Positions 3,254-40,179 of a DNA stretch of 46,124 bases are shown here, piece after piece. Origin of the DNA: Candidatus Micrarchaeota archaeon (GTDB taxonomy: Archaea > Micrarchaeota > Micrarchaeia > Anstonellales > Anstonellaceae). Location of the stretch: contig JAZDHB010000025.1 in NCBI GenBank assembly GCA_043806415.1, positions 1 through 46,124 of the forward strand. Direction: 5' to 3'. The position numbers were made by a program, and so were the translations under genes. Numbering within the stretch: position 1 is the first letter of the stretch; each line of letters starts with the position of its first letter. The notes under the pieces are model-generated. The model was not told the origin of the DNA, ran no database searches, and saw only the letters and a program-made list of their open reading frames with translations.

Positions 3254-3928
3254 ATGGAAATCAAACCCGTATCAACAGGCCCAATGGGCAATGCCAACCC
3301 CAAACCCCGGAGCAATCCCATCGTCAAAGTCAAGGATGCGTTCGATAAGGCCAAACCCCCGCCCGAAACCCCTGCTTCTTCCGCCCAGACGGCGCCGGGC
3401 CGCTCCGAGGAGGACCATCGGGTCGCGGCCCACGATTACCTCCAATCCTTTTACCGCGAGCACCGCACGCTGCTTGATTCGATCCCCAAGGCGTATGCCC
3501 GGACGCTCCGGTCCGCCCAGGAGGGAGATTTACAAGGGGCCGAACAAGGTCTTGACAAGGCTTTGAACCTCACCAACCGGCTCAAAGGCATCACCCGCGA
3601 TGCGCGCGAGCTTCTGCAATCTTCCGGCGAGGCCGTGGCGGATAGCAGCCAGGCGGTCCATTACCCGAAAATGGATGCCTTGCTTGGGCTGGAGAATGTG
3701 CTGGCGGTTGCGGCCACGGTGCCAAACCTCCATCTGGGAGTCTATTTCCGAACCGCCGCCAAGCTCACCCCGGAGCAGAAGGACGCCTCGCTGGCCGAAC
3801 TCAAACAAAGCACGGATAAGCTCGTGGGGATTTACGGGCGCCTGCACGCGCTCGGCAACGGGCCGGAGCATCTGTCCGATTTCCTTGTCTCGGAAGTGGC
3901 GCCATTCTCGGTTGACCGGAAAGCCTGA
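3254..3928 (+). CDS. Hypothetical protein (Pro-rich N-terminus, helical C-terminal part)
   Basis: 224-aa ORF whose codon usage resembles that of neighbouring genes. I recognise no family motif. Confidence 0.5.
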   Translation: MEIKPVSTGPMGNANPKPRSNPIVKVKDAFDKAKPPPETPASSAQTAPGRSEEDHRVAAHDYLQSFYREHRTLLDSIPKAYARTLRSAQEGDLQGAEQGLDKALNLTNRLKGITRDARELLQSSGEAVADSSQAVHYPKMDALLGLENVLAVAATVPNLHLGVYFRTAAKLTPEQKDASLAELKQSTDKLVGIYGRLHALGNGPEHLSDFLVSEVAPFSVDRKA

Positions 3929-4007
3929 GCCCCCTCGTTGTCATCGACAAGCCGGCAGAGAAACCGCCTGCTTCAGCGGGCGGAGCAAATGCCGGCGCCG
4001 GCTCAAC

Positions 4008-4182
4008 CATCGGCCCGCAGCCGATGGTGCAACAAGGCTCGACGCGTCGAGCCTTGTTTGTGTCGAGAAGCCGCCGAATGAGCACCAAACCCAGCCCTCC
4101 CGATTCGCCCTTCTGGGCGAATGGGCATCGTGGCGCGAATCGTCGCGCCACGATTGTTAGGGCTGGGTGCTCTTCGGCGGCT
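4008..4182. other. Cluster of GC-rich perfect inverted repeats that can form a three-way junction; candidate structured RNA or palindromic element
   Basis: Hairpin 4008-4026. Perfect 28-nt palindrome 4031-4058. Nested outer stems 4069-4078/4173-4182, 4080-4084/4168-4172 and 4090-4097/4160-4167 enclose hairpins 4103-4122 and 4127-4154. Confidence 0.5.
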
Positions 4183-4219
4183 ATGATTCCACGGACTTCG
4201 CGCCCGCGCCTTTGGGCTC

Positions 4220-7200
4220 CTATTCCATTTTGGCAATCGGCAGGCTCACTTCGATGGTGGTCATCTTCCCGCCATAGGCCGGCCCCAAATCCGTGAATCC
4301 GATCGTGCCTCCCATCTGCTCGGCGGCCCACTTGCAGTACCAGAGGCCCACTCCGGTCGAGCCTTCTTTGCGGTTCTCCAGCTTGGTGTTGTAGTCGAAG
4401 GCGTGCGCCGCCATGCCGGCCGAAAGCCCCGGGCCGTCGTCCGACATGCGGATCTTCACATCCGAAGGCCCGATCACGACTTCAATTTTTCCTGCGCTCG
4501 ACCCATAGCGCTCTGCATTGGACACCAAGTTTTCAATTATCGCCCGAACCATAAGGGGGTTGTAGTTCGCGAAAACGCTCTCGTCCTGAAGCCGGATGGG
4601 TTCCAGAGCGGAGCCATCTGTGGTCTTGTAATACTGCACGTCCATGCTTATGCGGCGGTTTTTGGTGCTGTTTGCGCAGGCATCATAGATGGTCAGGGCG
4701 ATGTTGTTCAGCCGGATCTGCGTGGAGCCTTCCATTTCGCTTAGGGCGATGTCCAGCCCGTCTTGGGCGAATTTGAAAAGGTCGATGAATTCATCCATCT
4801 CTTGCCCGCCCTGCTGGTTTTCGAGCAGGGGGATGACCTTATCCAGCGCGGCACGGGTCGTTTCGATGTTCTTCTCCATGTCTGCGATGATTTGGGCGGG
4901 CTCGCGCGGCATCTGCACCGATTCGCTGCCCGGTCCCGTCTGCGGGGGTTTCTTGGATTTGGCCAATTCGTCGAACAGACGGCCCATCTCCCCCCCGGAT
5001 TTGGATACGAGCTTGAGGTTCTCCACGAGGGCAGGGGGCGAAGATTCCTGATTTATGTCCATGAGTATGATTTCAGCCAAATTTCTCGGCGTTATGGCAA
5101 GGTTTTTTGCATTGTGCATGATGCCCACTTTCAGCATCTCGGCCATTTCCTCGCTGGCCGTGTTGCCCAATTCTTCAATGTTTTTTAGGGCCGCGTTCTC
5201 GCCGGTTTGTTTAGCTACCTTCCGTTCTTCTATCCTATCATTTATATTTGGCTGGGCGATGACCTTGCCTCCTTCGTAGATATTTGAAAATTCGCTTGTC
5301 CACTTTACATCGAATAGGGGCGTGCCGGCGGGGTCAGTTCCGGCATATTCTATTATGTGCCCTGCATCCGTTGAGGACGGGGCATAAAACAGGGCGTTCT
5401 TGTATCTCCCGCTTGCGCTTCTTGCCATCCCGCCGATCACGTCGGCACCGGATTTGCATCCCACGACTATGACTGAGGGGTGCGGAATGAAATACTTGGA
5501 GAGATCCCCGCCATAGGCGATTCCGACCCCAGAGACAAGGCCGCTGATCGCGTTTCCAAGCTGCATGGTTCTTTTCGTCGAGTGCCCGGAAACCCAGACG
5601 GAGGAGATCAAATCGCCATACAAGCCGGCTGTTTTTGCGATCTCGTTCTTAGCGTCTTTGGCGCTGCCAACCTCCACAATCCGCGCGTCCATGTTCTCGC
5701 ACAGCCCTTCGATATTCTTTATATCCCCGTAAAACGCTCCATTCCAATCTCTCAATGGATTGATGATAACCATCAAAGGTTTGAGTGGATTTCGTTTTCC
5801 GTAATTGTCATACTGGTTAATCAGCGTTTCAAGCGAGTACCTTCCAAAGAATTCGATACCGTTGTTCTTGTGAAGAAATTCCACTGCGCCCGGTCGCTCA
5901 AATTCCAGTGCATCCATTGCGCATGCATTTATGATTAAATCCGCCAAACCCCGGTTGTAATGCGGGTATTTCTTGCGGAATTCTTCTGGCGCATCCCGGA
6001 TATTCTGTAGATTCTCTCCAAATGATCGGCCTGCCTCCATATGATTGCGAAGTTTTACCAGCCCGTTGCCTATACTTACGTCTCCGTCTTTCTTGAAATT
6101 GGATAGAATAACCCCGACCAAATCTCTATATTCCGGGCTAAAAGACGGGGAATTGATGATTCGGAGATACTCGGATACGCTGAACGCGCAACCCGCACGC
6201 TTGGACCCGCGGATTATCTTTTCCACGCAGTCAGCGTCGATAACGTCAAACTTTTCCCATGCAACCGACTTGGGCAGCTCGAAAGGGCGCCCGAACTTCT
6301 TTTCATAAATTTCCTGAATTTTGTCGATGCTGGCTTTTTTGTCAAGTTCGGCTTTTGCATCCATGCCCGAAGCTTGCCCGGTCTTGCTGTCCGGTTTGGT
6401 CTGATCCGTGGCAACGGGTGTCTCAAACTTCTCGACCATCCGGTCGGGCTGTGTCTTTTCCCGCTCCTTCCATGATGTTTTCTTGTCCCATTTCGAGACC
6501 TTGATTTCTTTGCCGCCTAAATTAGCTTTCTTGATTGCTTTCTTAACGTATCTCCTGAATTTTACCGTTCCTAATAACCCATACGAAAAACTCATGCATC
6601 GGTCATATGTCCCGTCCCCAAGCTTTTCATCCAGCGCGGCCTTGAGCCGGGCGTGATTGCCATTGAAATAAGCGTCATTCATGACATCCTGCCCGACGAT
6701 TTGCTCCAGATAATAAGCTCCCTCCACCGCCGACCCATACACTCTGCTGCTTTTCACGCCATTCTTCTCCAAAATGGCCTCCGTGAGGAGTTGGGTGTAT
6801 CCTTCGTTGAATGCGCCGTCTTTCCCCAAGGAGCCTAGGTAGTGGTGAGTCTCATGGATGAGTACGGAGACGCTTCTGGCCCTGGCTTTGGGCATGCCCG
6901 CCCGCTCTACCAGAATGATATCTGTTGTGGGGTAATATTCGCCCATCCTTGCCAATATCAATGGGAACAAGACATTGGCTCCCAGCACCATCGGCGGGTT
7001 CTCCTGCAGGAACTTGCCCTGGGGCGTCCCTTCGTATTCTTTTTCCATCAAACGCATTGCCTTGGTAAACCCGTCTGTGGTGGTCACGTCGGTCTTGTTC
7101 AAGGAGCCCCTGTACGCCACTCCGCGCACTTTGCTTCTGTTTCCCTGATAGTTTTTGACATATCCTCCGGCATCTTTTGTCGAGTAGCGCCGGATGTTCT

Positions 7201-9262
7201 TATACTTGGAAGCATCTGTCGTCCATTCCTCGTGCAATGCATCAAGGCTCTCCAGCGTTGTGAGGCCCTTCTTAAAGAACCTTGCGTATGCCGCGGTAAT
7301 ATTATTCATTTTTTCTTCGATTTCTTTCAATCGGAGCTTGCCCGCATCGCTATTGCCTCGAATATCCATGCGCTCTCTCACCAAACCGTTGCATTCGTCG
7401 ATTGTCTTCTCCAGGTAATGGATTCTTCTGCGTCTGGATTCGATACTCCGCTTCTGCTCTTCCGGCGTCAGGGTTTGGCCGTCCTTCGCTTCATGTCCCG
7501 TTCCAATGCTGCTGGACGTGGTGTTCGTCTCGTTCCCTTTTTCCAGGGGCCTGTTGCCGTCCATCTGCAGCCCATTCGTCTTCTCCACCATGTTGCGCTT
7601 CTTCCCGCCCCCAAACGTTTTGCTTGCCAGCGGCAGGCCGATCATCATGCCCGCGTCCGCGCCGATTTTCATCACGTCCGCGAGGCTCCAATAGCTCGAG
7701 CCCGCCCGCAGGACCGTTTTCCAGATCTCGTACGACATGGTGCCCGTCATGCCGGCCGATGCGCCGATATCCGCGAGCCTGACCGCCGCGCCCATTGCCT
7801 TGCTCTCGGCCCCCAGCGTGGCAACCACCCGCCCCGCGCCCGGCACGCACATGAGCGCGCCCATGATGGCCTGTCCCGCGCTTCCGTTTTTCATGGCCTG
7901 GTCGATCTGATGGGCGCCCATGCCGAAGAACAGCGCCGCCCCCACCCCGGGCTGCACGAGCGAAACGACGCCCAGGCCGGCCATTTCCAGCTCGCCTGAA
8001 TAGCGCTCGACGAATCTGGAAACGGGCGCCCAGAACCGGTTGGTGATGGGGGACTCGGAGTAAAGGCCGAAAAAGGTGGGCTCGTAGGTGCGCCAGCGCT
8101 CGTTCTCCATCGCCTTGCCGTATTTGTCGAAAATGGATCCGGCCTGCGAGACGAACTCTTCGGGTTCGACGTTTCCCCAGTTGGTGCGCACCGCCTCCTC
8201 GAGCAGGCCCGCGTCCCGGCCCACGCCCGCCAGCGTGCGGCGGATGTCCGCATCCGGCGTCTGGCTTGCCACCTGCTTGGAGCTTATCCCGACCCCCAGC
8301 AGCCACGCGCCCATGTTCCTGCGCACCTCGTCCGGCGAATCCGCTTCCCAGTCCCTTTGGCCGGTCAGGTATCCTTCGGCGCGCGAGCCTCGGAGGGCCG
8401 GCTCGCGCTCTGCGAGTTTCTGGAGCAGACTGTCCAGATACTTCGCCATCTCCTCCGGGCCCTCCAGTTTGGCGAGCGCGCCGGAAACGTTCTTTGGCGA
8501 GAACTGCGAGAATCCTGCTGGCACGTTGCGCCATTGCCCTTGCGTGTCGGCGTAAGTCGCGTCCGTCTCGGCCTTGAATATCTTGCTCCCGCCTTTTTCC
8601 AATCCATCCAGCTCCCCGATGAGCCCGGAATAGAGCGCGGGTTGCATCCGGCTTTGGAGCACGACCCCGTACTCGTCCGCGTCCAGCTCGTTTCCGAAGA
8701 GGGCGTAGAAACCCGAAATCCGCCCCTCCTTGTTTCGGACCTCTTGCATGGGCGCCTGTTCCTTGAGGTACGCCTCCTGCTCGGCCCGGCTCTTCTTGAT
8801 GGCGGCCGCCACCTTCTTCTTCCCGGCCACGTCCGGGGAGATGTTATCCAGGATCTTCATCTTTTCCTCGCTGGAGGTGCTCCCGTCCTTTTGCGAGAGG
8901 AAACGGATCTGGCCAACCAGAGCCTCCTCGCTTTTTTTGGCGCTTGATGCGAGGAGTTTCCTGTTTTCCTTGCGCCCGCCGTATCGCACCGCTTTTTCCA
9001 GCAGCGCGATCTTGTCCTTGACGGAAGCGTCCGAATTCTCATATTCAACCAATAGTCTCTTGAGCCGGGCATCCGTCCGATTGTCCGGCCGCCCGGAGTT
9101 TGCGATGATCGATCCGATGTCCTGCGCCACGGCCCAGCCGCTCCGCTTTATCCTGGCGTCAAGACGGATCTGCGAGCCGCCCATCGTCCCTTCCGCGGGC
9201 AATGTGTCGAAGAAGAAGCGCTTGTCCGCTTTCCGTCCATCCGTCGCGGCCTTTTGTTGCAT
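4220..9262 (-). CDS. Giant (1680 aa) multidomain protein: unknown N-terminal region, glycine-zipper membrane segment, coiled coil, HExxH zincin motif, possible His/Cys hydrolase region, C-terminal GHKL (HATPase_c) domain
   Basis: Uninterrupted 5 kb ORF. C-terminal N-box IENLVSNAERYG, G1 DDGPGL and G2 GSTGVGLW. LIHETHHYLG at codons 6842-6862. Gly/Ala-rich hydrophobic stretch at aa ~425-552 (nt 7607-7990). TATA attttattaat (9281-9293, minus sense) lies about 25 nt upstream of ATG 9262. Confidence 0.85.
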   Translation of the reverse strand: MQQKAATDGRKADKRFFFDTLPAEGTMGGSQIRLDARIKRSGWAVAQDIGSIIANSGRPDNRTDARLKRLLVEYENSDASVKDKIALLEKAVRYGGRKENRKLLASSAKKSEEALVGQIRFLSQKDGSTSSEEKMKILDNISPDVAGKKKVAAAIKKSRAEQEAYLKEQAPMQEVRNKEGRISGFYALFGNELDADEYGVVLQSRMQPALYSGLIGELDGLEKGGSKIFKAETDATYADTQGQWRNVPAGFSQFSPKNVSGALAKLEGPEEMAKYLDSLLQKLAEREPALRGSRAEGYLTGQRDWEADSPDEVRRNMGAWLLGVGISSKQVASQTPDADIRRTLAGVGRDAGLLEEAVRTNWGNVEPEEFVSQAGSIFDKYGKAMENERWRTYEPTFFGLYSESPITNRFWAPVSRFVERYSGELEMAGLGVVSLVQPGVGAALFFGMGAHQIDQAMKNGSAGQAIMGALMCVPGAGRVVATLGAESKAMGAAVRLADIGASAGMTGTMSYEIWKTVLRAGSSYWSLADVMKIGADAGMMIGLPLASKTFGGGKKRNMVEKTNGLQMDGNRPLEKGNETNTTSSSIGTGHEAKDGQTLTPEEQKRSIESRRRRIHYLEKTIDECNGLVRERMDIRGNSDAGKLRLKEIEEKMNNITAAYARFFKKGLTTLESLDALHEEWTTDASKYKNIRRYSTKDAGGYVKNYQGNRSKVRGVAYRGSLNKTDVTTTDGFTKAMRLMEKEYEGTPQGKFLQENPPMVLGANVLFPLILARMGEYYPTTDIILVERAGMPKARARSVSVLIHETHHYLGSLGKDGAFNEGYTQLLTEAILEKNGVKSSRVYGSAVEGAYYLEQIVGQDVMNDAYFNGNHARLKAALDEKLGDGTYDRCMSFSYGLLGTVKFRRYVKKAIKKANLGGKEIKVSKWDKKTSWKEREKTQPDRMVEKFETPVATDQTKPDSKTGQASGMDAKAELDKKASIDKIQEIYEKKFGRPFELPKSVAWEKFDVIDADCVEKIIRGSKRAGCAFSVSEYLRIINSPSFSPEYRDLVGVILSNFKKDGDVSIGNGLVKLRNHMEAGRSFGENLQNIRDAPEEFRKKYPHYNRGLADLIINACAMDALEFERPGAVEFLHKNNGIEFFGRYSLETLINQYDNYGKRNPLKPLMVIINPLRDWNGAFYGDIKNIEGLCENMDARIVEVGSAKDAKNEIAKTAGLYGDLISSVWVSGHSTKRTMQLGNAISGLVSGVGIAYGGDLSKYFIPHPSVIVVGCKSGADVIGGMARSASGRYKNALFYAPSSTDAGHIIEYAGTDPAGTPLFDVKWTSEFSNIYEGGKVIAQPNINDRIEERKVAKQTGENAALKNIEELGNTASEEMAEMLKVGIMHNAKNLAITPRNLAEIILMDINQESSPPALVENLKLVSKSGGEMGRLFDELAKSKKPPQTGPGSESVQMPREPAQIIADMEKNIETTRAALDKVIPLLENQQGGQEMDEFIDLFKFAQDGLDIALSEMEGSTQIRLNNIALTIYDACANSTKNRRISMDVQYYKTTDGSALEPIRLQDESVFANYNPLMVRAIIENLVSNAERYGSSAGKIEVVIGPSDVKIRMSDDGPGLSAGMAAHAFDYNTKLENRKEGSTGVGLWYCKWAAEQMGGTIGFTDLGPAYGGKMTTIEVSLPIAKME

Positions 9263-13428: not shown

Positions 13429-13493
13429 GCCTCAAGCACGCACTGAAAATTTATAATCGGATTTCCCCGCACTTTCTTTCTCTTTGGAAGGCG

Positions 13494-13576
13494 TTTTCTT
13501 TCCCGCAGGCATACTTCTTTCTTTCGGGGTCAAGCCCATTTCTTTCCCGCAGGCATACTTCTTTCTTTCGGGGTCA
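13494..13576. repeat. Two tandem copies with a 45-bp period (conserved core ttctttcccgcaggcatacttctttctttcggggtca, 37 nt)
   Basis: Copies at 13494-13532 and 13539-13576, near identical by direct comparison. Located between tRNA-Ala and the promoter of 12109..13428. Confidence 0.85.
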
Positions 13577-13578
13577 GA

Positions 13579-13641
13579 CCGTTTCTCTTTCTTTTCGTGA
13601 AGGTTTTCTTTCTCTTCCGCAGAAGAGAAAGAAAAGGTTCT
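13579..13641 (-). repeat. Intron-like hairpin element immediately 3' of tRNA-Ala (family member 1)
   Basis: Minus-sense AGAACCTTTTCTTTCTCTTC-TGCG-GAAGAGAAAGAAAACCTTCACGAAAAGAAAGAG. It has a 14-bp perfect stem and aligns at roughly 75-80% with the tRNA-Thr intron. Confidence 0.75.
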
Positions 13642-13796
13642 TGGACACAGGGGGAATCGAACCCCCAGTCTCTGCCTCGTTCGGAGCCCTTTGGCTTTGC
13701 GGGCATTGCCCCCGGAAATTCTTTTTCCGGGGTTTTTGGCGCTCCGCGCCAAAAAGCCCTTGCGAAGGCAGCGTCTTACCATTCGACTATGTGCCC
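13642..13796 (-). tRNA. tRNA-Ala(CGC) with an approximately 83-nt intron at 37/38 (about 13678-13760)
   Basis: Minus-sense GGGCACA-TA-GTCG-AATGGTA-AGAC-G-CTGCC-TTCGCAA ... GGCAG-AGACT-GGGGG-TTCGATT-CCCCC-TGTGTCC-A. The G3:U70 pair is the Ala identity element. The intron folds into two long hairpins (a 14-bp stem with one mismatch and a perfect 9-bp stem). No CCA is encoded. Confidence 0.9.
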
Positions 13797-13808
13797 GTTC
13801 TGATTTAC

Positions 13809-13937
13809 GGCGAAGGCAGCGCCTTCCTCAGCGCGAAGCGCTGGGGATAGACGGCCAACAGGCCGGCGTATACGCAAGCCCGCAGGATTGCGGACAGGCC
13901 GCCAGAAGGCGGCCGTGTACCATCCGACTATGTGCCC
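13809..13937 (-). pseudogene. Partial upstream duplicate of the tRNA-Ala 5' half, interrupted by an insert of about 93 nt
   Basis: GGGCACATAGTCGGATGGTA (13918-13937) matches the functional copy at 19 of 20 positions. AGGCGCTGCCTTCGCC (13809-13824) repeats the D-stem and anticodon-arm segment. The upstream motif TAAATCAG is also duplicated. There is no separate T-arm or 3' acceptor strand. Confidence 0.6.
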
Positions 13938-18422: not shown

Positions 18423-18474
18423 CCCGTAATGTTCTTATTGATGCCTTGTCAGATTTATTCTGTTGCCGGTGTCG

Positions 18475-18543
18475 CATAACCTGGCAGCGCGCGAAGCCTT
18501 TTTCTTTCGTGCCGAAAGAAAAAGCCTTCAGGGAAAAAGAAAG
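18475..18543 (+). pseudogene. tRNA-Ser 5' fragment (positions 1 to about 26) fused to a copy of the intron hairpin element (family member 2, 18494-18543)
   Basis: CTGTTGCCGGTGTCGCATAACCTGG is identical to the region around the start of the functional gene 111 nt downstream. The anticodon-arm 5' strand is deleted. The hairpin CTTTTTCTTTC/GAAAGAAAAAG has one extra T and one matching extra A relative to the intron copy. Confidence 0.6.
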
Positions 18544-18585: not shown

Positions 18586-18736
18586 GCCGGTGTCGCATAA
18601 CCTGGTAGTGCGCTGGTCTTGAAGAAGCCTTTTCTTTCTGTGAAAGAAAAGCCTTCAGGGAAAAGAAAGTCCCGAAGGGAGGCTTCCAGATAACCAGTCC
18701 CTTACGGGATTGCAGGTTCAAATCCTGCCGCCGGCG
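18586..18736 (+). tRNA. tRNA-Ser(UGA), class II, with an approximately 68-nt intron at 37/38 (about 18624-18691; family member 3)
   Basis: GCCGGTG-TC-GCAT-AACCTGGTA-GTGC-G-CTGGT-CTTGAA[intron]A-ACCAG-TCCCTTACGGGAT(long variable arm)-GCAGG-TTCAAAT-CCTGC-CGCCGGC-G73. Confidence 0.85.
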
Positions 18737-18818
18737 CTCACTTCGCTCGCTTGTCGGCAGTTTGAGCCCTGCGGGCTCAAAACCCTCGCGCATCTGGCGC
18801 TCGGTCCTGCCGCCGGCG
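18737..18818 (+). repeat. 68-nt hairpin mini-insert plus a 14-nt duplicate of the tRNA-Ser 3' end
   Basis: TCCTGCCGCCGGCG occurs at 18723-18736 and again at 18805-18818. The insert contains the hairpin TTTGAGCCC-TGC-GGGCTCAAA (18761-18781). Confidence 0.8.
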
Positions 18819-18864
18819 ATTGATTATTTAACTGTCGCATTCTTATCCCTCTAGAGGTTTTCCC

Positions 18865-19020
18865 ATGGGAATGAGCAAGCACGATCTGGAGCGAAAAAGG
18901 CAGAACATGAAGCGGCGCGTGGAGGAGCTGGAGCTCCTCGTCAAGAACGACCCGCTCAAGCGCAAGCCCCAGATCCACGAGGAGCTCGAGAAGCTCAAGA
19001 AGCAGCTCGCCGAGAACTAG
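18865..19020 (+). CDS. Small (51 aa) coiled-coil protein, hypothetical
   Basis: MGMSKHDLERKRQNMKRRVEELELLVKNDPLKRKPQIHEELEKLKKQLAEN. The A/T box gattatttaac lies about 27 nt upstream. It is below the ORF-track size cutoff. Confidence 0.4.
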   Translation: MGMSKHDLERKRQNMKRRVEELELLVKNDPLKRKPQIHEELEKLKKQLAEN

Positions 19021-19050
19021 TTTTCGGCCCTTTCAATCTTTTCCGCCTTT

Positions 19051-19365
19051 TTACTCTTTACTCGATTTTCGGAAGGCGTCGATCAGCCCGTGGGCGTAGT
19101 TGATGGCCCCGAACGCGGTCACGTAATCCTTCTTCTTGAGGAAATATTTGGTGTCCTCGCAGTATTGCTCTGCCAGCTCCAGCACATATGCGTTATCCGT
19201 CGTCTTCTTCACTTCCTTGACGTTGGCGTAGAACTGGTCGATGTCGGAGCGGATCCGCTCCTCATCGTTTTTCGCGCTGGCATGGCCGGATTTTCTTTTT
19301 TTGCGCTCCATTTCCATTCCCTTTGCGACGAATTCGTTTTCTGACGTGATTTGTTGCGATATCAT
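19051..19365 (-). CDS. DUF357-like small archaeal protein
   Basis: ELAEQYCEDTKYFLKKKDYVTAFGAINYAHGLIDA resembles the DUF357 helical-hairpin motif as I remember it. I chose the MISQQ start because the TATA ctattatag lies about 20 nt upstream. The track ORF extends to 19413. Confidence 0.5.
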   Translation of the reverse strand: MISQQITSENEFVAKGMEMERKKRKSGHASAKNDEERIRSDIDQFYANVKEVKKTTDNAYVLELAEQYCEDTKYFLKKKDYVTAFGAINYAHGLIDAFRKSSKE

Positions 19366-19379
19366 TTTAAGTCCCCGCC

Positions 19380-19388
19380 CTATAATAG
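19380..19388. promoter_or_regulatory. Palindromic TATA box (ctataatag) shared by divergent genes
   Basis: It lies between ATG 19365 (minus) and ATG 19413 (plus). Confidence 0.45.
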
Positions 19389-19412
19389 CCTTCGCATGCT
19401 GGGGTAGTTTCA

Positions 19413-19754
19413 ATGCTCGTCATCACCAAATCATTCATCGGCCGCGTCAAATTCGGGCAGAAGGAGGACGCCGGCGTGTACACCTGGATCGCCTATCCCA
19501 ACGACCAGTATGCGATGCATTCGGCGGTGATGAAGGTCACCCCGGTCAGCAAGAACCACGAGGAGGGCGAGGAAGAGAAGAAGCACGCGCACGTGAAAAG
19601 CGAGCAGGGAAAAGGCGGCCAAGACGGAGAAGAAGAGAGGAAAATCCAGAGCGTGAAAGTCGGAGGGGGCGATTCTTCCGTGGAGGTCGCGCCCGCCCCC
19701 GCCCGCGTCGCCACCCTCCAGCCGTTCAAGCAATTCGAGCTTTTCCTGAACTAA
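19413..19754 (+). CDS. Hypothetical protein with an acidic low-complexity centre
   Basis: 113-aa ORF about 29 nt downstream of the shared TATA. No family recognised. Confidence 0.45.
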   Translation: MLVITKSFIGRVKFGQKEDAGVYTWIAYPNDQYAMHSAVMKVTPVSKNHEEGEEEKKHAHVKSEQGKGGQDGEEERKIQSVKVGGGDSSVEVAPAPARVATLQPFKQFELFLN

Positions 19755-19797
19755 ACCCTTTTTTAATTTGATTTTGGCCTATTTAACAAGCATTCAT

Positions 19798-19947
19798 GCC
19801 CTCGTAGCTCAGTGGTAGAGCGCCTGTCTCGTAAGCTTTTCTTTTCTCCTGCGGGAGAAAAGAAAACCTTGGAAATGAAAAGAGAAGCATCGGCTTTCTT
19901 CTCTTCGGGATAACAGGAGGTCACGAGTTCAAATCTCGTCGGGGGCT
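19798..19947 (+). tRNA. tRNA-Thr(CGU) with an approximately 78-nt intron at 37/38 (about 19834-19911; family member 4)
   Basis: GCCCTCG-TA-GCTC-AGTGGTA-GAGC-G-CCTGT-CTCGTA[intron]A-ACAGG-AGGTC-ACGAG-TTCAAAT-CTCGT-CGGGGGC-U73. Confidence 0.9.
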
Positions 19948-20024
19948 AAACTTCGTTTAGCCAGCCCGACTTTGAGCCTGCTGGCTCAAATCCCGCCAAC
20001 TGTTGTTGGCGGTCGTCGGGGGCT
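19948..20024 (+). repeat. 65-nt hairpin mini-insert plus a 12-nt duplicate of the tRNA-Thr 3' end
   Basis: TCGTCGGGGGCT occurs at 19936-19947 and at 20013-20024. The insert has hairpins TTTGAGCC-TGCT-GGCTCAAA (19971-19990) and CCGCCAAC-TGTT-GTTGGCGG. Confidence 0.8.
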
Positions 20025-20053
20025 TGCGAAGAAAAGTTAAACTTCAATATCGA

Positions 20054-20749
20054 CTATCTGACTATGTTTGAACGATAGTAGCTACAAGTAGCATAATTTA
20101 CGCGAAATTGTGTGAATGGATAAGCGAATGTCCCGCCTCGTGACCCATCTGTATAATATTCGACAAAAAATACATTATCTCCGATTGAGCCAACTTTCTT
20201 TCCGAGCGGAAGCATTCGTCCCGTCTCATCGATAGATTTGTAGGGGTAATACGTCATATTAAATCCAGATATGTTTGATTCGGGTATAAGCTCCATCTCA
20301 ACAACCATCATTGTTTCAGAACCTAACTGTTCAATTTGTCCATTCGGCGAAATTTTAGTTTGATTTCGGCTGAGGGAGACGTCATAAAAATAATAAAAAT
20401 TCCTATTCTCTCCCGCATAAGTGCCATTAGCTACTCTTCCTGCCGGACCTCCAAGCGACCAGTCATTTGCATTTTTTAGGTTTGAAGATTGCATCCAATA
20501 CTCCTTTGGAAATGATGGCGCATCTCCATTATAATCTATGAAAAATGTCTGGACTGGGGCAAATGCATCAGTGCAATCTATGTAATCTCTGTTCAGTTTC
20601 ATCGCGCGGTCGACAGGTGGAGGTGTTTGTATTGTTCTTGGTGCAGTGTTGTCTATAGATGAACCGCTAGGAGCTGGTTGAACTACGTCTTTGAGTACGC
20701 ACCCGAAAAGGAGGGCAAGTGCAAATATCGAAATCAAAACAACTCGCAT
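20054..20749 (-). CDS. Putative lipoprotein or secreted protein, hypothetical (islet cargo)
   Basis: Signal peptide with a lipobox-like LLFGC. The protein is Asn/Tyr-rich and A/T-rich, unlike the host genes. Confidence 0.65.
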   Translation of the reverse strand: MRVVLISIFALALLFGCVLKDVVQPAPSGSSIDNTAPRTIQTPPPVDRAMKLNRDYIDCTDAFAPVQTFFIDYNGDAPSFPKEYWMQSSNLKNANDWSLGGPAGRVANGTYAGENRNFYYFYDVSLSRNQTKISPNGQIEQLGSETMMVVEMELIPESNISGFNMTYYPYKSIDETGRMLPLGKKVGSIGDNVFFVEYYTDGSRGGTFAYPFTQFRVNYATCSYYRSNIVR

Positions 20750-20786
20750 GGAAAATTCACCACTTAGATCTTTTATCTTTTTGTCA

Positions 20787-21092
20787 TTATTTCGAGTCTA
20801 ATGCCTCTTGTAGTTCTCGCTCTGCGGTTTCCCAATCTCCTCCTTGAGTCAATAGACCGAGAAGAATTCCGCCAAACAAAACGATGTTGATTGTGTTGAA
20901 CCGTCCGAACTTCTCAACTATCTTACCTTCTTCATCTAAACCAAAATAAAGAGTTCTATAAAAAAATACACGTATCGCCTCGATATTATGCCCATCTTGG
21001 GAAAGAGAAACATCAAACTTTCCACTTGCTTTTAGCTTGTCGATTGTTTTTTGCATTTTTTTATTCTCGGTAAGATCGCCCGTCTTTTCCAT
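20787..21092 (-). CDS. Small hypothetical protein with one TM (islet cargo)
   Basis: 101 aa with the hydrophobic segment INIVLFGGILLGLL. Confidence 0.5.
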   Translation of the reverse strand: MEKTGDLTENKKMQKTIDKLKASGKFDVSLSQDGHNIEAIRVFFYRTLYFGLDEEGKIVEKFGRFNTINIVLFGGILLGLLTQGGDWETAERELQEALDSK

Positions 21093-21310
21093 AAGAAACT
21101 AACCGAATTGTTATATATTAATCAATCGCCAAGTGAGAATGACCTCCAAATATGGGCAAACAACGAGTTTTTAATGTCATAAGAAAACCAAACTATAACT
21201 ATCTGTTCAAATCTCGTCGGGGGCTTAAACACATCCCGGAATCAAGTTGAAGAAAAAGAAAAACAAAAAGAGAAACGCCGGATAAAATAGAAAAATCCGG
21301 GCCCGAAAGC

Positions 21311-33767: not shown

Positions 33768-33889
33768 GCCTTGGCTTTCCCCATATACTTTTAAAGATTT
33801 AACACCGAAGAGAATACCATACTCTTTACCTGCCGGAACAGCGAAAATTTCCGCCAAAGGGAAAACGAGGCTTGAACCGAGGTTATCTT

Positions 33890-36088
33890 ATGGTCCGCAA
33901 AGAATACGTCGTGGATGAAGTCCAGAAGATGATGAGCAACCTGACGAACGTGCGCAACGTGGCCATCTGCGCCCACGTCGACCACGGCAAGACCACGCTC
34001 ACCGACTCGCTCGTGGCCCGCGCCGGCCTCATCTCCAAGGAGACCGCCGGCGAGCAGCGCATGATGGACTTCGACGAGCAGGAGCAGGCCCGCGGCATCA
34101 CCATCAAGGCGGCCAACATATCGCTCGCCTTCCAGCTGCGCGAGAAGGACTACCTCGTCAACCTCATCGACACGCCCGGCCACGTCGATTTCGGCGGCCA
34201 CGTCACGCGCGCCATGCGCGCGGTGGACGGCGTCATCCTGGTGGTCGATTCCGTCGAGGGCGTCATGCCCCAGACCGAGACCGTGCTGCGCCAGGCGCTA
34301 AAAGAGAAGGCGCGCCCCTGCATCTTCATCAACAAGATCGACCGGCTGGTCAACGAGCTGCAGCTCACCGACGTGCAGATGCAGCAGCGCCTGCTCAAGA
34401 TCTTCGCCCAGATCAACAAGCTCATCGAGCAGTACGCCCCGCCCGAGCAGAAGGAGAAATGGCTCATCGACGTCAAGAAGGGCACCATCGCCTTCGGCTC
34501 GGCCTACCACAAATGGGCCATCTCCACCAAAGCGATGGAGCGCTTCAACATCAAGTTCGCCGACATCTTCAAGTACTGCCGCGAGGGCGAGGAAGGCCAC
34601 AAGACCCTGCGCGAGAAATCCCCGCTGGATGAGGTGCTGCTCGACATGATCGTCGAGCATTTGCCCTCTCCGGCGGAAGCGCAGCCGTACCGCATCCCGA
34701 CCATCTGGGCCAAGGGCGACATGGAATCCGAGCAGGGCAAGTCCATGCGAATGTGCGATGCCAACGCCAAGACCATCGGCGTGTGCGTCGGCGTGGTCAA
34801 CGACCCGCACGCGGGAGAGGTGGCCATCGTGCGCCTCTTCGCCGGCCGGGTGCGCAAAGGGGACATGCTCTACCTCGCCGCTCGTTTCGCTTCCGAGAAG
34901 GTGCAGCAGGTGGCCATCTACATGGGCCCCGACCGGGTGATGGTGGACAACGTCGTCGCCGGAAACATCGTGGGCATCGTGGGCCTGCGCGACATCTATG
35001 TCGGCGAGACCGTGTCCGACGGTCCGTGCGAGCCTTTCGAGCAGATCAAGCACTATTCCGAGCCGGTCGTCACGAAGTCGATCGAGGCCAAGGATTCCAA
35101 GGAACTGGCCAAGCTCATCATGGTGCTGCGCGCGCTGGCCAAGGAGGACCCGACCCTCAAAGTCGAGCTCAACCAGGACACGGGAGAGCACCTCATCTCC
35201 GGCATGGGCGAGCTGCACCTGGAGATCATCGAGTACAAGATCACCAAGGAGAAGGGCGTGGCCATCACCACCTCGCCCCCCATCGTCGTCTACCGCGAGA
35301 TCATCAGCGGCAATTCCGGCGTGGTGGAAGGCAAGTCGCCCAACAAGCACACCAAGCTCAAATTCGAGGTCGAGCCCCTGCCCGAGACCGTCATCAAGGC
35401 GTTCGACGAGGGCAAGATCCCCGAGGGCAAGCCCAAGGGCAAGGTGCTGGTCGAGACCCTGGTCGAGGCGGGCCTGCCCCGCGACGAGGCGAAGAGCGTG
35501 GTGGACATCCACAACCGCTCCATCTTTATCAACGACACGCGCGGCATCCAGTACCTCAACGAGATCATGGAGCTCATGATCCAGGGCTTCGAGGAGGCGC
35601 TGGACAAGGGGCCCCTGTGCAAGGAGCGGGTGTTCGGCGTGAAGGTGAAAATCATCGATGCCACCATCCACGAGGACCCGGTCCACCGCGGCCCGGCCCA
35701 GATCATCCCGGCCACCAAGCGGCCCATCTACGCGGCCCTCCTGTACGCGGGCGTCACCTTGCAGGAGCCCAAGCAGAAGATCACCATCCTCGTGCCCGGC
35801 GACTACATGAGCAACGTCATCACGCTCGTGCAGGGCCGGCGCGGCACGATGCTGGACATCCAGCAGGAAGGCGAAGGGGCCACGCTCGTCGCCAAACTGG
35901 CCGTGTCCGAATTGTTCGGATTCTCCAACGACCTGCGCAGCGCCACGCAAGGGCGCGCCATCTGGTACCAGGAATACGCCGGATTCGAGCCCCTGCCGCG
36001 GGAAATGCTGCTCAAGACCGTCAAGCAGATCCGCGAGCGGAAAGGGGACAAGCCCGATCCGCCGACGCCCGCCGACTTCCTGGAATAA
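33890..36088 (+). CDS. fusA: Translation elongation factor aEF-2
   Basis: AHVDHGKTTL and DTPGHVDF. The diphthamide-site motif HEDPVHRG has its His codon at 35684-35686. GAGGT lies 7 nt upstream of ATG 33890. The track start at 33872 is a TTG. Confidence 0.95.
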   Translation: MVRKEYVVDEVQKMMSNLTNVRNVAICAHVDHGKTTLTDSLVARAGLISKETAGEQRMMDFDEQEQARGITIKAANISLAFQLREKDYLVNLIDTPGHVDFGGHVTRAMRAVDGVILVVDSVEGVMPQTETVLRQALKEKARPCIFINKIDRLVNELQLTDVQMQQRLLKIFAQINKLIEQYAPPEQKEKWLIDVKKGTIAFGSAYHKWAISTKAMERFNIKFADIFKYCREGEEGHKTLREKSPLDEVLLDMIVEHLPSPAEAQPYRIPTIWAKGDMESEQGKSMRMCDANAKTIGVCVGVVNDPHAGEVAIVRLFAGRVRKGDMLYLAARFASEKVQQVAIYMGPDRVMVDNVVAGNIVGIVGLRDIYVGETVSDGPCEPFEQIKHYSEPVVTKSIEAKDSKELAKLIMVLRALAKEDPTLKVELNQDTGEHLISGMGELHLEIIEYKITKEKGVAITTSPPIVVYREIISGNSGVVEGKSPNKHTKLKFEVEPLPETVIKAFDEGKIPEGKPKGKVLVETLVEAGLPRDEAKSVVDIHNRSIFINDTRGIQYLNEIMELMIQGFEEALDKGPLCKERVFGVKVKIIDATIHEDPVHRGPAQIIPATKRPIYAALLYAGVTLQEPKQKITILVPGDYMSNVITLVQGRRGTMLDIQQEGEGATLVAKLAVSELFGFSNDLRSATQGRAIWYQEYAGFEPLPREMLLKTVKQIRERKGDKPDPPTPADFLE

Positions 36089-37763: not shown

Positions 37764-38026
37764 GGCCGATCACGCCCTTTGAACGGGCCGGGTGTTTTTA
37801 TTCGTGCCTGTCTTGCGCCTATCGTTTCCCTCGGCAACCGGGCGTGGATGAAAATGAGCGCCCCAGCCGGGCTTTAGACAAAAAGTGCCACTTTGCAACT
37901 CTTAGACGTTCAAATCCCGACAAAATCAATGGAAATAAAGGCATTTTCGACTCCAACCTTCTATCTCAGACTTCTTCTACTTAAAATTAGTCGAACGGCT
38001 TTCCAAACAGGGATTCGGTTTTCCAT

Positions 38027-38605
38027 TTATGCGCCATTTTTGTCCAGACAGCATTTCTTATACTTCTTTCCTGAACCGCAGGGGCAGGGCTCGTTGCGGC
38101 CTATCTTGCGAGGAAGCGGGGCGGTCGGCAATGACGTTTTTCCAGCCGTGCCGATATCTTCATATTCGGAAACGGGAGTCAGATGAGAATGCTCGACCTC
38201 TTTCTCCGTGAGTATCGCGATGAATTTTAGGCATTCTTCCTCGTTGGCCGAGAAGAAGATTGCTCCCTCCACGACCTCAGCGAAGAACTTCGCGCCGAGC
38301 AAGCCAGATGCAATCTGATCATCTTCGTCATAATACGGGCTTCCCTCTTCACCCATGCGGCTCATATCCATTTGGATTTCGGCAAGCGGGCGCCAAGCCA
38401 ACTCCCGTTCGACTTTCCCGCCCCGCATCCTAAATACCCTGATGTCCTGTCCTTTGGCGTATTTGAAGAGGAGTTCGATTATTTGGTCATGATCGAAAGA
38501 TTTCTTCTGAGTGAAATCAAGAATTACCTCGAAATAATAGTCGAAACCGAAGATTTGCTCGAGCTCCTCATAGGGCTTACCAGTCAATTCCATAAACGCT
38601 CCCAT
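38027..38605 (-). CDS. SEC-C motif protein with an unknown N-terminal domain (islet cargo)
   Basis: C-terminal [16 protein letters not shown]. The start codon directly abuts the stop of the upstream ATPase gene. Confidence 0.7.
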
Positions 38606-39841
38606 TCAACCGGATTTTTCATCCGCCTTTTCCGTCATCCATTTCCAGGCCGGCACCATCTTGACTTTGCGCCCGTCCACTCCGAAATGGTCTTCCTGTT
38701 CCAGCGTGACAATCGTCCCTTCATCCAGCCTGAATTTCTTCATGGCCAGAACAAGGCCGTCTATCTCACGCTGGCGGTTGCTGTCTTCCATCTTGTGGCA
38801 GACTTGGACGGCTGAGCTTATCCGCCCTTTCTGTTTGAGCAGGAAGTCGCACTCACCCGCTTCTTCTTTGTAATAATACAATTCCTTTCCCTGACGCCTC
38901 AATGCCAGAAATACGGCATTCTCAAGCATCCGGCCCTCATCTGCCGAGAAAGAAAGCGAATTTGCTCTCGCCAAACCGTTGTCTATGCAGTAGGCCTTCT
39001 TTGGGGCCACCAATTGCTTGGCTGGAGAGTAGTCGAAACCGGGCAGGTAGAAGAACAGGTAGCTGTCCTCCAGGTAGGTGCCATATTGCGTTATGCTGTT
39101 GGTGGATCCCGCGTCAAAGACTTTCCTCAAACGATTGTAGGAAAATTCCTTACCCACATTGGAAACCAGATGGAGCGCCATGTCCTTGAGCAGTTTGCCA
39201 TCCCTGATCGGGTATCGAGTCATGATGTCGCGCGATAGTATGTCTGCGAGCAACTCTTGCAAGACCTCGTCCCGCTCCTTTTTGAGATAGGCCGGGAATC
39301 CGCCTTCGCGCAGATAGCGCTTGGCGCTTGCGGCATCTGCCTTTATGCCTCGGAAAGACAGAAATTCAGAATATGAGAATGGGAAAAGCTCATACGTGAG
39401 GTGCCGACCCGTCAAGAGGGTGCCTAATTCCTTAGACAATAGAGAAGCATTGGAACCGGTGAGCACGAACTTCTTGCCCTTGCCCAAGGAGCCGCTGACA
39501 TAACGCTCCCATCCCTTGATGTTCTGAACTTCATCGAAAAGGCACAGCTCGGCCGGCCCGAATTCCTCAGTCAGGACCTCTTCCAGACGGTGGAAGTCCT
39601 GCGCCTCGAAACCCGCGAGACGGGAATCCTCGAAACTGGTGTAATGGAATTTCTTGGCCCGCTTTGCCAACTGGCGCAAAAGCGTGCTCTTGCCGCCCCG
39701 GCGCACACCAGAAATGACGGTGGCGAAATCAGCGTCCGGGCTTATCCCTTTGGTGAGCTGCCTCGGGAGGTCTTTTTCGTCCATCTCGAGATCTGCCCTC
39801 TGCTTTCGCACCACCTGCTGCATGGTTTCGACCGGTATCAT
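38606..39841 (-). CDS. AAA+ ATPase of the COG1373 type (AAA_14 + DUF4143-like) (islet cargo)
   Basis: Walker A GVRRGGKST and Walker B CLFDEVQ. I chose the start MIPVETMQQ at 39841 because the TATA ctttatatac lies about 25 nt upstream. The track ORF extends to 39892. Confidence 0.75.
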   Translation of the reverse strand: MIPVETMQQVVRKQRADLEMDEKDLPRQLTKGISPDADFATVISGVRRGGKSTLLRQLAKRAKKFHYTSFEDSRLAGFEAQDFHRLEEVLTEEFGPAELCLFDEVQNIKGWERYVSGSLGKGKKFVLTGSNASLLSKELGTLLTGRHLTYELFPFSYSEFLSFRGIKADAASAKRYLREGGFPAYLKKERDEVLQELLADILSRDIMTRYPIRDGKLLKDMALHLVSNVGKEFSYNRLRKVFDAGSTNSITQYGTYLEDSYLFFYLPGFDYSPAKQLVAPKKAYCIDNGLARANSLSFSADEGRMLENAVFLALRRQGKELYYYKEEAGECDFLLKQKGRISSAVQVCHKMEDSNRQREIDGLVLAMKKFRLDEGTIVTLEQEDHFGVDGRKVKMVPAWKWMTEKADEKSG

Positions 39842-40057
39842 GGCACTATTGAATCCTAGGAAGTATATAAAGGTGTGCAATATATCGCACACTTCTGTGC
39901 AGTATGATGAACACTACTGTGCATTAGTAATGCGCACTTTGCTGTTCTGTCATGTAATTCGATTACATGACAAATCCAAAAATGGTTCCCCCGCCTCTAT
40001 CTGATAAATGAGATCAAGGCCTAATATAATATGGTCTTTAGTGTATAAAAATGTATT

Positions 40058-40179
40058 CGCCCCAGCCGGGATTTGAACCCGGATCGTGAGCTTTCGCCTT
40101 TCCAGGCTACTCGCATTCGTGCATCGGTAGCACTTGCCATTCGGAGGCTCGCGTCCTATCCAGGTTGGACTACCAGGGC
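40058..40179 (-). tRNA. tRNA-Arg(CCG) with an approximately 48-nt intron at 37/38 (about 40093-40140)
   Basis: Minus-sense GCCCTGG-TA-GTCC-AACCTGGATA-GGAC-G-CGAGC-CTCCGA[intron]A-GCTCA-CGAT-CCGGG-TTCAAAT-CCCGG-CTGGGGC-G73. TATA tttataaat lies about 30 nt upstream. There is one 27:43 mismatch. Confidence 0.85.

Follow-up and report, generated by a model that had tools for sequence, protein, structure and literature searches.

The window analysed here is a 46-kb stretch (46,124 nt) of a contig from a Candidatus Micrarchaeota archaeon, in which two tRNA genes, tRNA-Ser(TGA) and tRNA-Thr(CGT), are each followed by a short, hairpin-rich insert and by a second copy of their own 3' end. Transfer RNA genes were called with Rfam and ARAGORN. 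Rfam reports five of them in the window, four interrupted at the canonical position by introns of 51-86 nt, while ARAGORN recovers one of the five, the intron-less tRNA-Cys, and misses the four intron-bearing genes (tRNA-Ser and tRNA-Thr because of their long introns). The original prediction, made by a reader of the sequence alone, was that duplications of tRNA ends flank inserts of 65-68 nt downstream of tRNA-Ser and tRNA-Thr, and both repeats prove to be exact: TCCTGCCGCCGGCG occurs at 18723-18736 and again at 18805-18818, with 68 nt between the copies, and the copies of TCGTCGGGGGCT, at 19936-19947 and 20013-20024, are 65 nt apart. Each repeat consists of the 3' strand of the T-stem, the 3' strand of the acceptor stem and the discriminator base, corresponding to tRNA positions 60-73 (Ser) and 62-73 (Thr), and both stop exactly at the end of the mature tRNA. 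The inserts contain no open reading frame (ORF). We call them U1 and U2 in the window, and W_Ser and W_Thr where they are compared with units from other contigs; their coordinates, and those of the features associated with them, are collected in Table 1.

Table 1. tRNA genes, tRNA-end repeats, mini-inserts and cassettes in the window, with positions counted from its first nucleotide.
Feature	Position	Strand	Description
tRNA-Arg(TCG)	13642-13796	-	intron-bearing
Displaced copy of tRNA-Ser 5' part	18451-18540	+	acceptor 5' strand and D-arm; 88% identity over 42 nt; repeats D3, D4, D6
tRNA-Ser(TGA)	18586-18736	+	70-nt intron; Rfam RF00005, 42.4 bits; anticodon read from sequence; last 14 nt are repeat copy 1
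Mini-insert U1, 68 nt	18737-18804	+	sequence, folds; covariance model match E=1.3e-5
U1, linker with TTCG	18737-18754	+	
U1, inverted tRNA-end copy	18755-18760	+	CGGCAG
U1, hairpin 1	18761-18781	+	
U1, hairpin 2	18783-18804	+	
tRNA-Ser 3' end, repeat copy 2	18805-18818	+	TCCTGCCGCCGGCG; exact repeat D12
tRNA-Thr(CGT)	19798-19947	+	80-nt intron; Rfam, 57.1 bits; last 12 nt are repeat copy 1
Mini-insert U2, 65 nt	19948-20012	+	model match E=3.4e-18, but U2 was used in model building
U2, linker	19948-19958	+	AAACTTCGTTT
U2, inverted tRNA-end copy	19959-19970	+	AGCCAGCCCGAC
U2, hairpin 1	19971-19990	+	
U2, hairpin 2	19993-20012	+	
tRNA-Thr 3' end, repeat copy 2	20013-20024	+	TCGTCGGGGGCT; exact repeat D13
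AT-rich 1.2-kb cassette	20025-21204		between tRNA-Thr-end copies 2 and 3; GC 0.36-0.43, against 0.55-0.65 in the flanks
tRNA-Thr end, repeat copy 3	21205-21225	+	21 nt including the T-loop (GTTCAAATCTCGTCGGGGGCT)
tRNA-Arg(CCG) 3' end, second copy	37859-37872	-	13 of 14 nt
2.2-kb cassette after tRNA-Arg(CCG)	37873-40057	-	bounded by tRNA-Arg(CCG)-end repeats
tRNA-Arg(CCG)	40058-40179	-	intron; Rfam, 41.4 bits; 3' end TCCCGGCTGGGGCG is a further attachment repeat

The two inserts follow the same order. A linker of 11-18 nt containing TTCG leads into a segment complementary to the tRNA end, which is followed by hairpin 1 (8-9 bp) and by hairpin 2 (8-9 bp), the latter lying directly against the second repeat. 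A common layout and central hairpin had been proposed for them, and their local alignment scores 33, compared to 13.7 +/- 2.3 for dinucleotide shuffles, none of which (0 of 2000) scores as high; the shared hairpin TTTGAGCC..GGCTCAAA has two occurrences only in the 46 kb, where none is expected. The segment 5' of hairpin 1 repeats the tRNA end in inverted orientation (CGGCAG:CUGCCG for Ser; AGCC-AG-CCCGAC:GUCGGGGGCU for Thr) and can pair with either the upstream or the downstream copy of the repeat. Pairing with the downstream copy produces a three-way junction, which is the minimum-energy fold for W_Ser, W_Thr and a related unit on contig L003 (z -2.7 to -7.5), and pairing with the upstream copy produces three consecutive hairpins (z=-7.1 for the Thr fold, copy 1 included). 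When complementarity between inverted copy and repeat is summed over 12 units of the family described below, 2 of 1000 shuffles of the left part are as good by duplex energy. It had also been suggested that one arm of hairpin 1 resembles a tRNA T-arm. Given that similar hairpins are present in the introns and trailers of these tRNAs as well, an origin from a T-arm is doubtful and the likeness may be coincidental.

The inserts belong to a previously undescribed family. The search for further copies in other Micrarchaeota yielded 14 units (13 distinct) on six contigs, including the window, and all of them lie against a copy of a tRNA 3' end and carry the flanking duplication, in agreement with the location that had been anticipated for them. 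Both flanking repeats match the tRNA end exactly in 12 of the 14 units, which range from 51 to 73 nt in length and follow tRNA-Ser(TGA), tRNA-Ser(GCT) or tRNA-Thr(CGT). True relatives of the inserts were found by a hairpin pattern scan on L003 and L010, which belong to Candidatus Micrarchaeota metagenome-assembled genomes (MAGs), and on the metagenome contigs L020 and L021, which are identical in sequence. These were the real ones among 11 matches in genome contigs (two real) and 23 in metagenome contigs (L020 and L021 only); the others were chance palindromes or bacterial terminators. Two syntenic loci, L035 (from the same MAG as L003) and L039, were found via protein look-ups, and the DUF357 protein of L039 is 94% identical to that of the window. 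DUF357 homologues outside the closest clade show a different synteny and no tRNAs, and homologues of the AAA_14 genes carried in cassettes (see below) revealed no new units when they served as probes for more tRNA-end arrays (L053-L062). A covariance model of hairpins 1 and 2 recovers nine units at E <= 3e-4 from 189 kb of Micrarchaeota DNA, and gives no significant match in this DNA away from tRNA-end repeats.

It is the structure of the hairpins, and not their sequence, that is kept in the units, via compensatory changes. In an alignment that was fitted to the covariance model, and is thus biased towards structure, 97.4% of cells are paired and 8 of 16 pairs have changed on both sides, values that none of 500 shuffles attains; sliding the partner columns abolishes the signal. 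Among the raw units, hairpin 1 occurs with the distinct stems TTTGAGCC, TTTCGCC, TTTTGGCGC and TTTCGGCC, and hairpin 2 with six different stems. A shorter type of unit (51-54 nt) has a single hairpin against the repeat. Nearly the same hairpin core can be found at different tRNAs, with each repeat matching its own tRNA (W_Thr versus L003), and some units are half-mosaics, the left half being common to W_Ser and L035_Ser_2 and the right half to L039 and L035_Ser_2.

Units are also found in arrays. On L020, four copies of the tRNA-Ser end accompany three different tandem units, and two 100% identical tandem units lie downstream of tRNA-Thr on L035. The latter contig, which is 6.6 kb long, carries in addition at least six copies of the terminal 14-mer of the window's tRNA-Ser, with four units, a gene of the AAA_14+DUF4143 type and a RelE/ParE toxin pair in the intervals. 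This contig lacks an intact tRNA-Ser, and its outermost repeats contain 1-2 mismatches; the repeats are therefore not strongly selected, and most units are young. Close relatives differ in the units that they carry. The flanks of L039 are almost identical to those of the window, and its tRNA-Ser is followed by a different unit of 54 nt between the same two repeats. Its tRNA-Thr has neither U2 nor the 1.2-kb cassette and is followed instead by a hairpin element of ~100 nt between 11-nt repeats (ACAGGAGGTCA), to which an element of ~125 nt on L035 is related. These elements of ~100-125 nt, with repeats of 10-11 nt (ACAGGAGGTC, plus A in L039), bring a T-arm and acceptor of their own that differ from those of the target, and the old 3' half of tRNA-Thr is displaced. 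On L042, tRNA-Thr has no insert and tRNA-Ser is followed by the left half of a unit only. The inserts are variable, stackable DNA-level cassettes at a recombination site formed by the tRNA 3' end, and not a fixed part of the tRNA gene.

These differences are relevant to the idea that the units are a functional part of the tRNA transcript. According to this idea, the trailer would adopt the three-way junction, in which the inverted copy pairs with the second tRNA-end copy and hairpins 1 and 2 branch off, for 3' processing, stability or the production of a small RNA, and the units would have evolved in place or spread as RNA, similar to the hairpin modules of the introns. The position of T-runs after the last repeat, rather than after the tRNA, in L003, L010 and L020 makes it probable that tRNA and units share a transcript. 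The covarying hairpins, the minimum-energy junction of W_Ser, W_Thr and L003, and the hairpins of the same style in introns and trailers of the same tRNAs could all be read in this way. However, units are absent, swapped or multiplied among close relatives, the L035 array is set apart from any intact tRNA with some of its repeats decaying, and the same repeats bracket gene cassettes on the opposite strand. The junction itself pairs the discriminator base, which leaves no tRNA-like acceptor end, and by inspection there is no bulge-helix-bulge (BHB) geometry at the unit borders. We consider a transcript function of the units very unlikely.

Larger, gene-bearing cassettes make use of the same tRNA-end repeats. 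The AT-rich cassette behind U2 contains two ORFs on the minus strand (20054-20749, 231 aa; 20787-21092, 101 aa), neither of which matches a known family, and is absent at the syntenic loci on L035 and L039. The cassette after tRNA-Arg(CCG) encodes an AAA_14+DUF4143 ATPase (38606-39892, minus strand), which corresponds to the PADLOC defence candidate PDC-S01 (E=5.6e-108), and a SEC-C motif protein (38027-38605, minus strand). Following the second tRNA-Arg(CCG)-end copy, the sequence CTCATTTTCATCCACGCCCGG at ~37838-37858 resembles the left end of a mini-insert and can be compared with the tRNA-Ser trailer of L042. In the relative L035, a toxin-antitoxin cassette (RelE/ParE) and an AAA_14 ATPase cassette are located at tRNA-Ser-end repeats. 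The AAA_14+DUF4143 module and its palindromic upstream region (ATACTGCACAGAAGTGTGCGATAT..) are 79% identical between the window (38606-39915, minus strand) and L035 (277-1571), and the module resides at tRNA-Arg(CCG) in the window and in the tRNA-Ser repeat array of L035, with flanks that are not homologous. The comparison does not map the ends of the element, the 79% homology being limited to gene and promoter. Several relatives' contigs stop inside or beside tRNA-end arrays or the AAA_14 module (L035 as a whole contig, L039 at its 10834 end and L057-L061 at their ends), which suggests that tRNA-end repeats break short-read assemblies.

The use of the same repeats by gene cassettes might indicate that the units are passive scars. 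These would be leftovers of larger integrated plasmids or viruses, in which the right and left attachment (att) arms became fused after deletion of the cargo or excision at a secondary site; the units would not move by themselves, and arrays would record cycles of integration and excision. The shuffling of left and right halves among W_Ser, L039 and L035_Ser_2 is expected from the joining of independent arms, a left half without a second repeat is present on L042 and at the window's tRNA-Arg(CCG), and the window ORFs and cassettes that were scanned revealed no mobility gene. In contrast, the uniform size (51-73 nt) and layout of the units would not be expected from independent deletions, and the compensatory changes that keep both hairpins argue for selection on the units themselves. 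Furthermore, the ends of the gene cassettes lack these hairpins, no parent element with such arms was found in the viral collection, and the two tandem units of L035 are 100% identical. Scarring appears unlikely to us.

The position of the repeats within the tRNA provides further information. Their left edge is position 60 in all Ser units (T60), a constancy that extends over three different Ser tRNAs and a number of unit subtypes, and position 62 in the Thr units of two genomes, which have the same 12-nt repeat with GG before it. All Ser units have repeats of 14 nt, and lengths of 12, 14, 16 and 21 nt are found across units and cassettes. GTTCAAA precedes every first repeat copy that still adjoins its tRNA (seven of eight loci; the Ser array of L035 has no adjacent tRNA). 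Such a pattern could be generated by a target-duplicating ruler enzyme, be it of the casposase/Cas1 type or another transposase, which would read GTTCAAA in the T-loop, cut the two strands ~14 bp apart (after 59 and after 73) and insert short DNA, gap filling then duplicating positions 60-73. Repeated insertion beside the tRNA would result in an array, much as CRISPR arrays grow next to their leader. The exact 14-nt repeat with its fixed edge and the preceding motif agree with this proposal, as do the near-identical hairpin cores that W_Thr and L003 combine with repeats of their own tRNAs, and a parallel exists in the casposase of Aciduliprofundum boonei, which targets the 3' end of tRNA-Pro beside the T-loop motif TCAAATC and creates duplications of 14-15 bp (PMC6614799). 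Casposons share with the units this choice of target; the casposase integrates short oligonucleotides in vitro, and tandem arrays are conceptually similar to CRISPR growth (PMC6614799, PMC5137440). However, the units lack terminal inverted repeats (by inspection) and are related, structured sequences rather than arbitrary DNA, and neither Cas1 nor family B polymerase (PolB) nor a transposase is found among the window ORFs scanned. The register is different, too: the duplication starts inside the motif here and 8 bp after it in casposons, and repeat length spans 12-21 nt, from the Thr repeat of two genomes to the cassette repeat that includes the T-loop. Target duplication alone leaves the inverted copy, which matches the unit's own tRNA, unexplained, and the elements of ~100-125 nt on L039 and L035 carry tRNA-like sequence that diverges from the target. 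Taken together, we judge a ruler enzyme of this kind distinctly improbable.

Given the further copies, their location at tRNA ends, the differences between relatives and the repeats around gene cassettes, the inserts arose by recombination of DNA at the end of the tRNA. This much of the original prediction stands, none of the outcomes that were to refute it having been observed; it had offered either an inserting mini-element or att scars, and these two alternatives cannot be separated with the present data. The interpretation that we tentatively prefer, and to which we give nearly even chances, is that the inserts represent the smallest cargo, devoid of genes, of site-specific integration arrays that are anchored at tRNAs, with recombination acting in trans and possibly on folded single strands. 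The terminal 12-14 nt of the tRNA gene (positions 60/62-73) would form the attachment site, and each cassette would bring its own copy of this attachment segment. Strands would be exchanged within the segment by a site-specific recombinase provided in trans, whose gene is not in the window, so that the tRNA gene is regenerated and a second tRNA-end copy is left at the far side of the cassette. Repeated events would give rise to stacked arrays, in which the repeats would also permit precise loss, and larger cassettes with defence-candidate, toxin-antitoxin or unassigned genes as cargo use the same repeats.

That the attachment site is borne by the element, rather than created by duplication of the target, is favoured by the variation in repeat length (12, 14, 16 and 21 nt), by the 12-nt repeat preceded by GG that the Thr units of two genomes share, by the repeats that gene cassettes have in common with the units, by the inverted segment of each unit lineage, which matches its own tRNA, and by the target-divergent tRNA-like sequence of the ~100-125 nt elements on L039 and L035. 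Element-borne tRNA-like sequence that differs from the target is a hallmark of integrase-type att sites. In the window units, identity with the tRNA ends exactly at the repeat, and extension beyond the identity block is seen only in the ~100-125 nt elements. The substrate might be recognised as a folded single strand, as is the case for integron attC and CTX-phage attP sites; we infer this from the conservation of hairpin structure rather than sequence, from the inverted tRNA-end copy and from the implausibility of an 80-bp duplex circle. The anatomy of the units, their family, the arrays, the differences among relatives and the repeats common to units and gene cassettes are observed directly; the kind of enzyme and a possible self-mobility of the mini-cassettes are, like the folded substrate, inferred.

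Several observations weigh against integration arrays of this type. Pfam detected no integrase among 27 window ORFs and three L035 ORFs, neither integrase, transposase nor Cas1 matched any of the window ORFs scanned or the cassettes, and the window ORFs scanned include no intI, Cas1, PolB, TnpA/TnpB or cas genes. A larger autonomous relative with the same ends and an integrase, which the original prediction had proposed to look for, was not found. Likewise, the viral collection contains no virus with mini-insert ends: scanning viral contigs for the hairpin, for tRNA ends and for junctions between hairpin 2 and repeat returned nothing, or chance matches in GC-rich phage genes, and the viral match L038, which lies in a helicase gene, was dismissed as chance. 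No classical core site, with inverted arms around an overlap of 6-8 bp, is visible at the repeats. A double-stranded circle of ~80 bp is implausible as an intermediate, and independent mobility therefore requires a single-stranded route or transfer within larger DNA. The ends of the gene cassettes are without the hairpin architecture of the mini-inserts, so that another system may act on these cassettes at this site. Only 3 of 12 units show an individually strong complementarity of inverted copy and repeat (p ~0.01-0.02), and the exchange of units between window and L039 can also be attributed to differential loss out of an L035-like array in an ancestor.

Integration at tRNA genes as such is already known. 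Islands, plasmids and viruses that target tRNAs, including cis-mobilizable elements (CIMEs), share with the arrays described here direct repeats taken from the tRNA 3' end, with the tRNA intact on one side and a displaced copy on the opposite side, as well as tandem stacking, defence and toxin-antitoxin cargo and variation between strains (PMC8371274). The present units differ in being gene-less and 51-73 nt long, in their repeat of 12-14 nt from position 60/62, in their composition of two covarying hairpins and an inverted copy of the att segment, and in that no integrase was found nearby. To our knowledge, no integrative element as small as these units has been reported. A review of archaeal tyrosine recombinases mentions tandem integration and nothing of 50-70 nt in size (PMC8371274). 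The earlier statement that no described archaeal element of such size and target was known agrees with our reading of the literature, in which we found no description of gene-less hairpin cassettes of 50-70 nt at archaeal tRNA ends.

A resemblance to structure-specific recombination systems is plausible but unproven. Integron cassettes and their attC sites, including those of archaeal integrons, have in common with the units a site length of ~60-140 nt, the precedence of structure over sequence, arrays at a single anchor, an inverted segment that pairs with the 3' end of the site and leaves bulges, toxin-antitoxin and defence cargo, and the frequent occurrence of clusters without integrase (PMC9668308). 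The units differ from them by the lack of RYYYAAC/GTTRRRY cores and intI, by an anchor that is a tRNA end instead of attI, and by cassettes that are mostly empty or, where they do contain genes, have no hairpin site at their ends. Archaeal integrons have canonical attC sites, and the paper describing them mentions neither Micrarchaeota nor tRNA (PMC9668308). Palindrome-associated transposable elements (PATEs, derived from IS200/IS605), repetitive extragenic palindromic (REP) elements and the folded-strand integration of CTX phage at dif are similar to the units with respect to their hairpin-based, possibly single-stranded substrates and an internal target-complementary segment, comparable to a guide sequence or to the target mimicry of a folded attP. 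Unlike the units, these systems leave no duplication of 12-14 nt and their left and right hairpins are alike, whereas hairpins 1 and 2 are not; no TnpA/TnpB was found here, and a tRNA end takes the place of a tetranucleotide or dif as target. Archaeal BHB introns of tRNA genes, for which transposition has been proposed, agree in size (65-86 nt), in their two-hairpin build and in the hairpin style seen in the introns of these very tRNAs. The units differ in lying outside the mature tRNA, in being flanked by duplicated exon sequence and in having no BHB at their borders. A more specific proposal, to which we assign a low probability, is that the arrays are a tRNA-anchored analogue of integrons in Micrarchaeota: the tRNA 3' end would serve as the insertion site and the 51-73 nt units as structure-recognised sites (empty cassettes), handled as folded single strands by a recombinase, with arrays capturing and shuffling defence and toxin-antitoxin genes; hairpin modules of this kind might, in addition, have given rise to the unusually long introns in the tRNA genes of these genomes.

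A number of other identities were considered for the inserts and rejected. BHB introns were dismissed by inspection, as neither the predicted folds nor a search by hand in any register within the repeat showed two 3-nt bulges 4 bp apart at the borders. With stems of 8-12 bp and loops of 3-5 nt, the hairpins are unlike tRNA arms and do not represent a decayed tandem tRNA copy. A primer-binding site for tRNA-primed reverse transcription would contain a TGG complementary to CCA, which is missing. Canonical attC sites are excluded since, by inspection, RYYYAAC/GTTRRRY cores are absent from the outer ends of all units and CAAC..GTTG is present only in hairpin 2 of three of them. A classical recombinase core with the overlap in the linker fails because copy 1 and copy 2 are followed by different sequences, and purely local fold-back replication because the non-tRNA parts of the units are common to unrelated tRNAs and genomes. 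The inserts are not miniature transposable elements of the inverted-repeat type (MITEs), given that terminal inverted repeats are missing (the left ends, CTCAC.. and AAACT.., do not match the right ends, ..CTCGG and ..GGCGG, in reverse complement) and that all nine significant model matches in the 189 kb lie at tRNA-end repeats instead of being dispersed. CRISPR arrays have repeats of 23-50 nt, compared to the 14 nt of a tRNA end here; the "spacers" are homologous to one another, and no cas genes were found. Finally, an element derived from IS200/IS605 (PATE or REP) was rejected in view of the unlike hairpins 1 and 2 and the repeats of 12-14 nt.

Perfect hairpins with stems of >=8 bp number 17 in the window, compared to ~3 expected from shuffles; 11 of them are in or beside tRNA genes and four in a cluster at 3960-4190. 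The introns of the four intron-bearing tRNAs (Table 1) are composed of perfect hairpins that follow one style, in which a T-run leads into a stem (GC or polypyrimidine), the loop frequently reads TGCG, GGA or TGC, and an A-run comes next, with CCCC or CCTT after it. Hairpins with a T-run, GC stem and A-run, their loops often being TGCG, also fill the introns and trailers of the tRNAs that bear inserts. The trailer of tRNA-Arg(TCG) (13470-13641, minus strand) contains an intron-like hairpin, TTTTCTTTCTCTTC TGCG GAAGAGAAAGAAAA, which is almost identical to the first hairpin of the tRNA-Thr intron and is followed by a tandem duplication of ~47 nt (gaccccgaaagaaagaagtatgcctgcgggaaagaaa). The cluster at 3960-4190 occupies the convergent intergenic region between the ORFs 3254-3928 (plus strand) and 4220-9262 (minus strand) and is densely packed with perfect hairpins. 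Its long outer stem (GCCGCCGAATGAGCACC..CCCAGCCCT pairing with AGGGCTGGGTGCTCTTCGGCGGC) encloses two inner hairpins, a three-way layout as in the tRNA units but with no tRNA link; the match to the covariance model is weak (E=0.014).

Duplications are found at the 5' ends of tRNA genes as well. Partial 5' copies, consisting of the acceptor 5' strand and the D-arm, lie ~120-130 nt upstream of tRNA-Arg(TCG) (13797-13937, minus strand) and of tRNA-Ser. Behind the displaced tRNA-Ser copy there is an intron-like hairpin, and the real gene has a TATA-like box in the stretch that separates it from the copy; L039 has a displaced tRNA-Ser 5' copy in the same arrangement. Including these, tRNA 5'-end duplications with hairpins between the copies occur at four genes: the tRNA-Ser and tRNA-Arg(TCG) of the window, tRNA-Ser(GCT) of L003 and tRNA-Ser(TGA) of L020. 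The host genes of the window encode eRF1, two FtsZ proteins, diphthamide synthase, elongation factor 2 (EF-2), an FeFe hydrogenase and an ABC transporter. The EF-2 gene lies at 33872-36088; in Thaumarchaeota, the 3' end of the EF-2 gene is a casposon target.

DPANN archaea have tiny genomes, and their mobile DNA is little known. Gene-less cassettes that are defined by structure and stack at tRNA ends, near cassettes of the defence type, would represent a kind of site-specific recombination unit that is both new and very small, and would provide a concrete locus for the gain and loss of defence genes in these organisms. For annotation, the findings mean that standard tRNA finders miss such genes and that the arrays break assemblies, the contigs of two relatives ending inside or beside them. 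There is a long-standing idea that the fragmentation of tRNA genes and their introns are linked to pressure from tRNA-integrating elements. The present observations bear on this aspect of tRNA gene evolution, given that one hairpin style is found in the introns, leaders, trailers and inserted units of the same genes.

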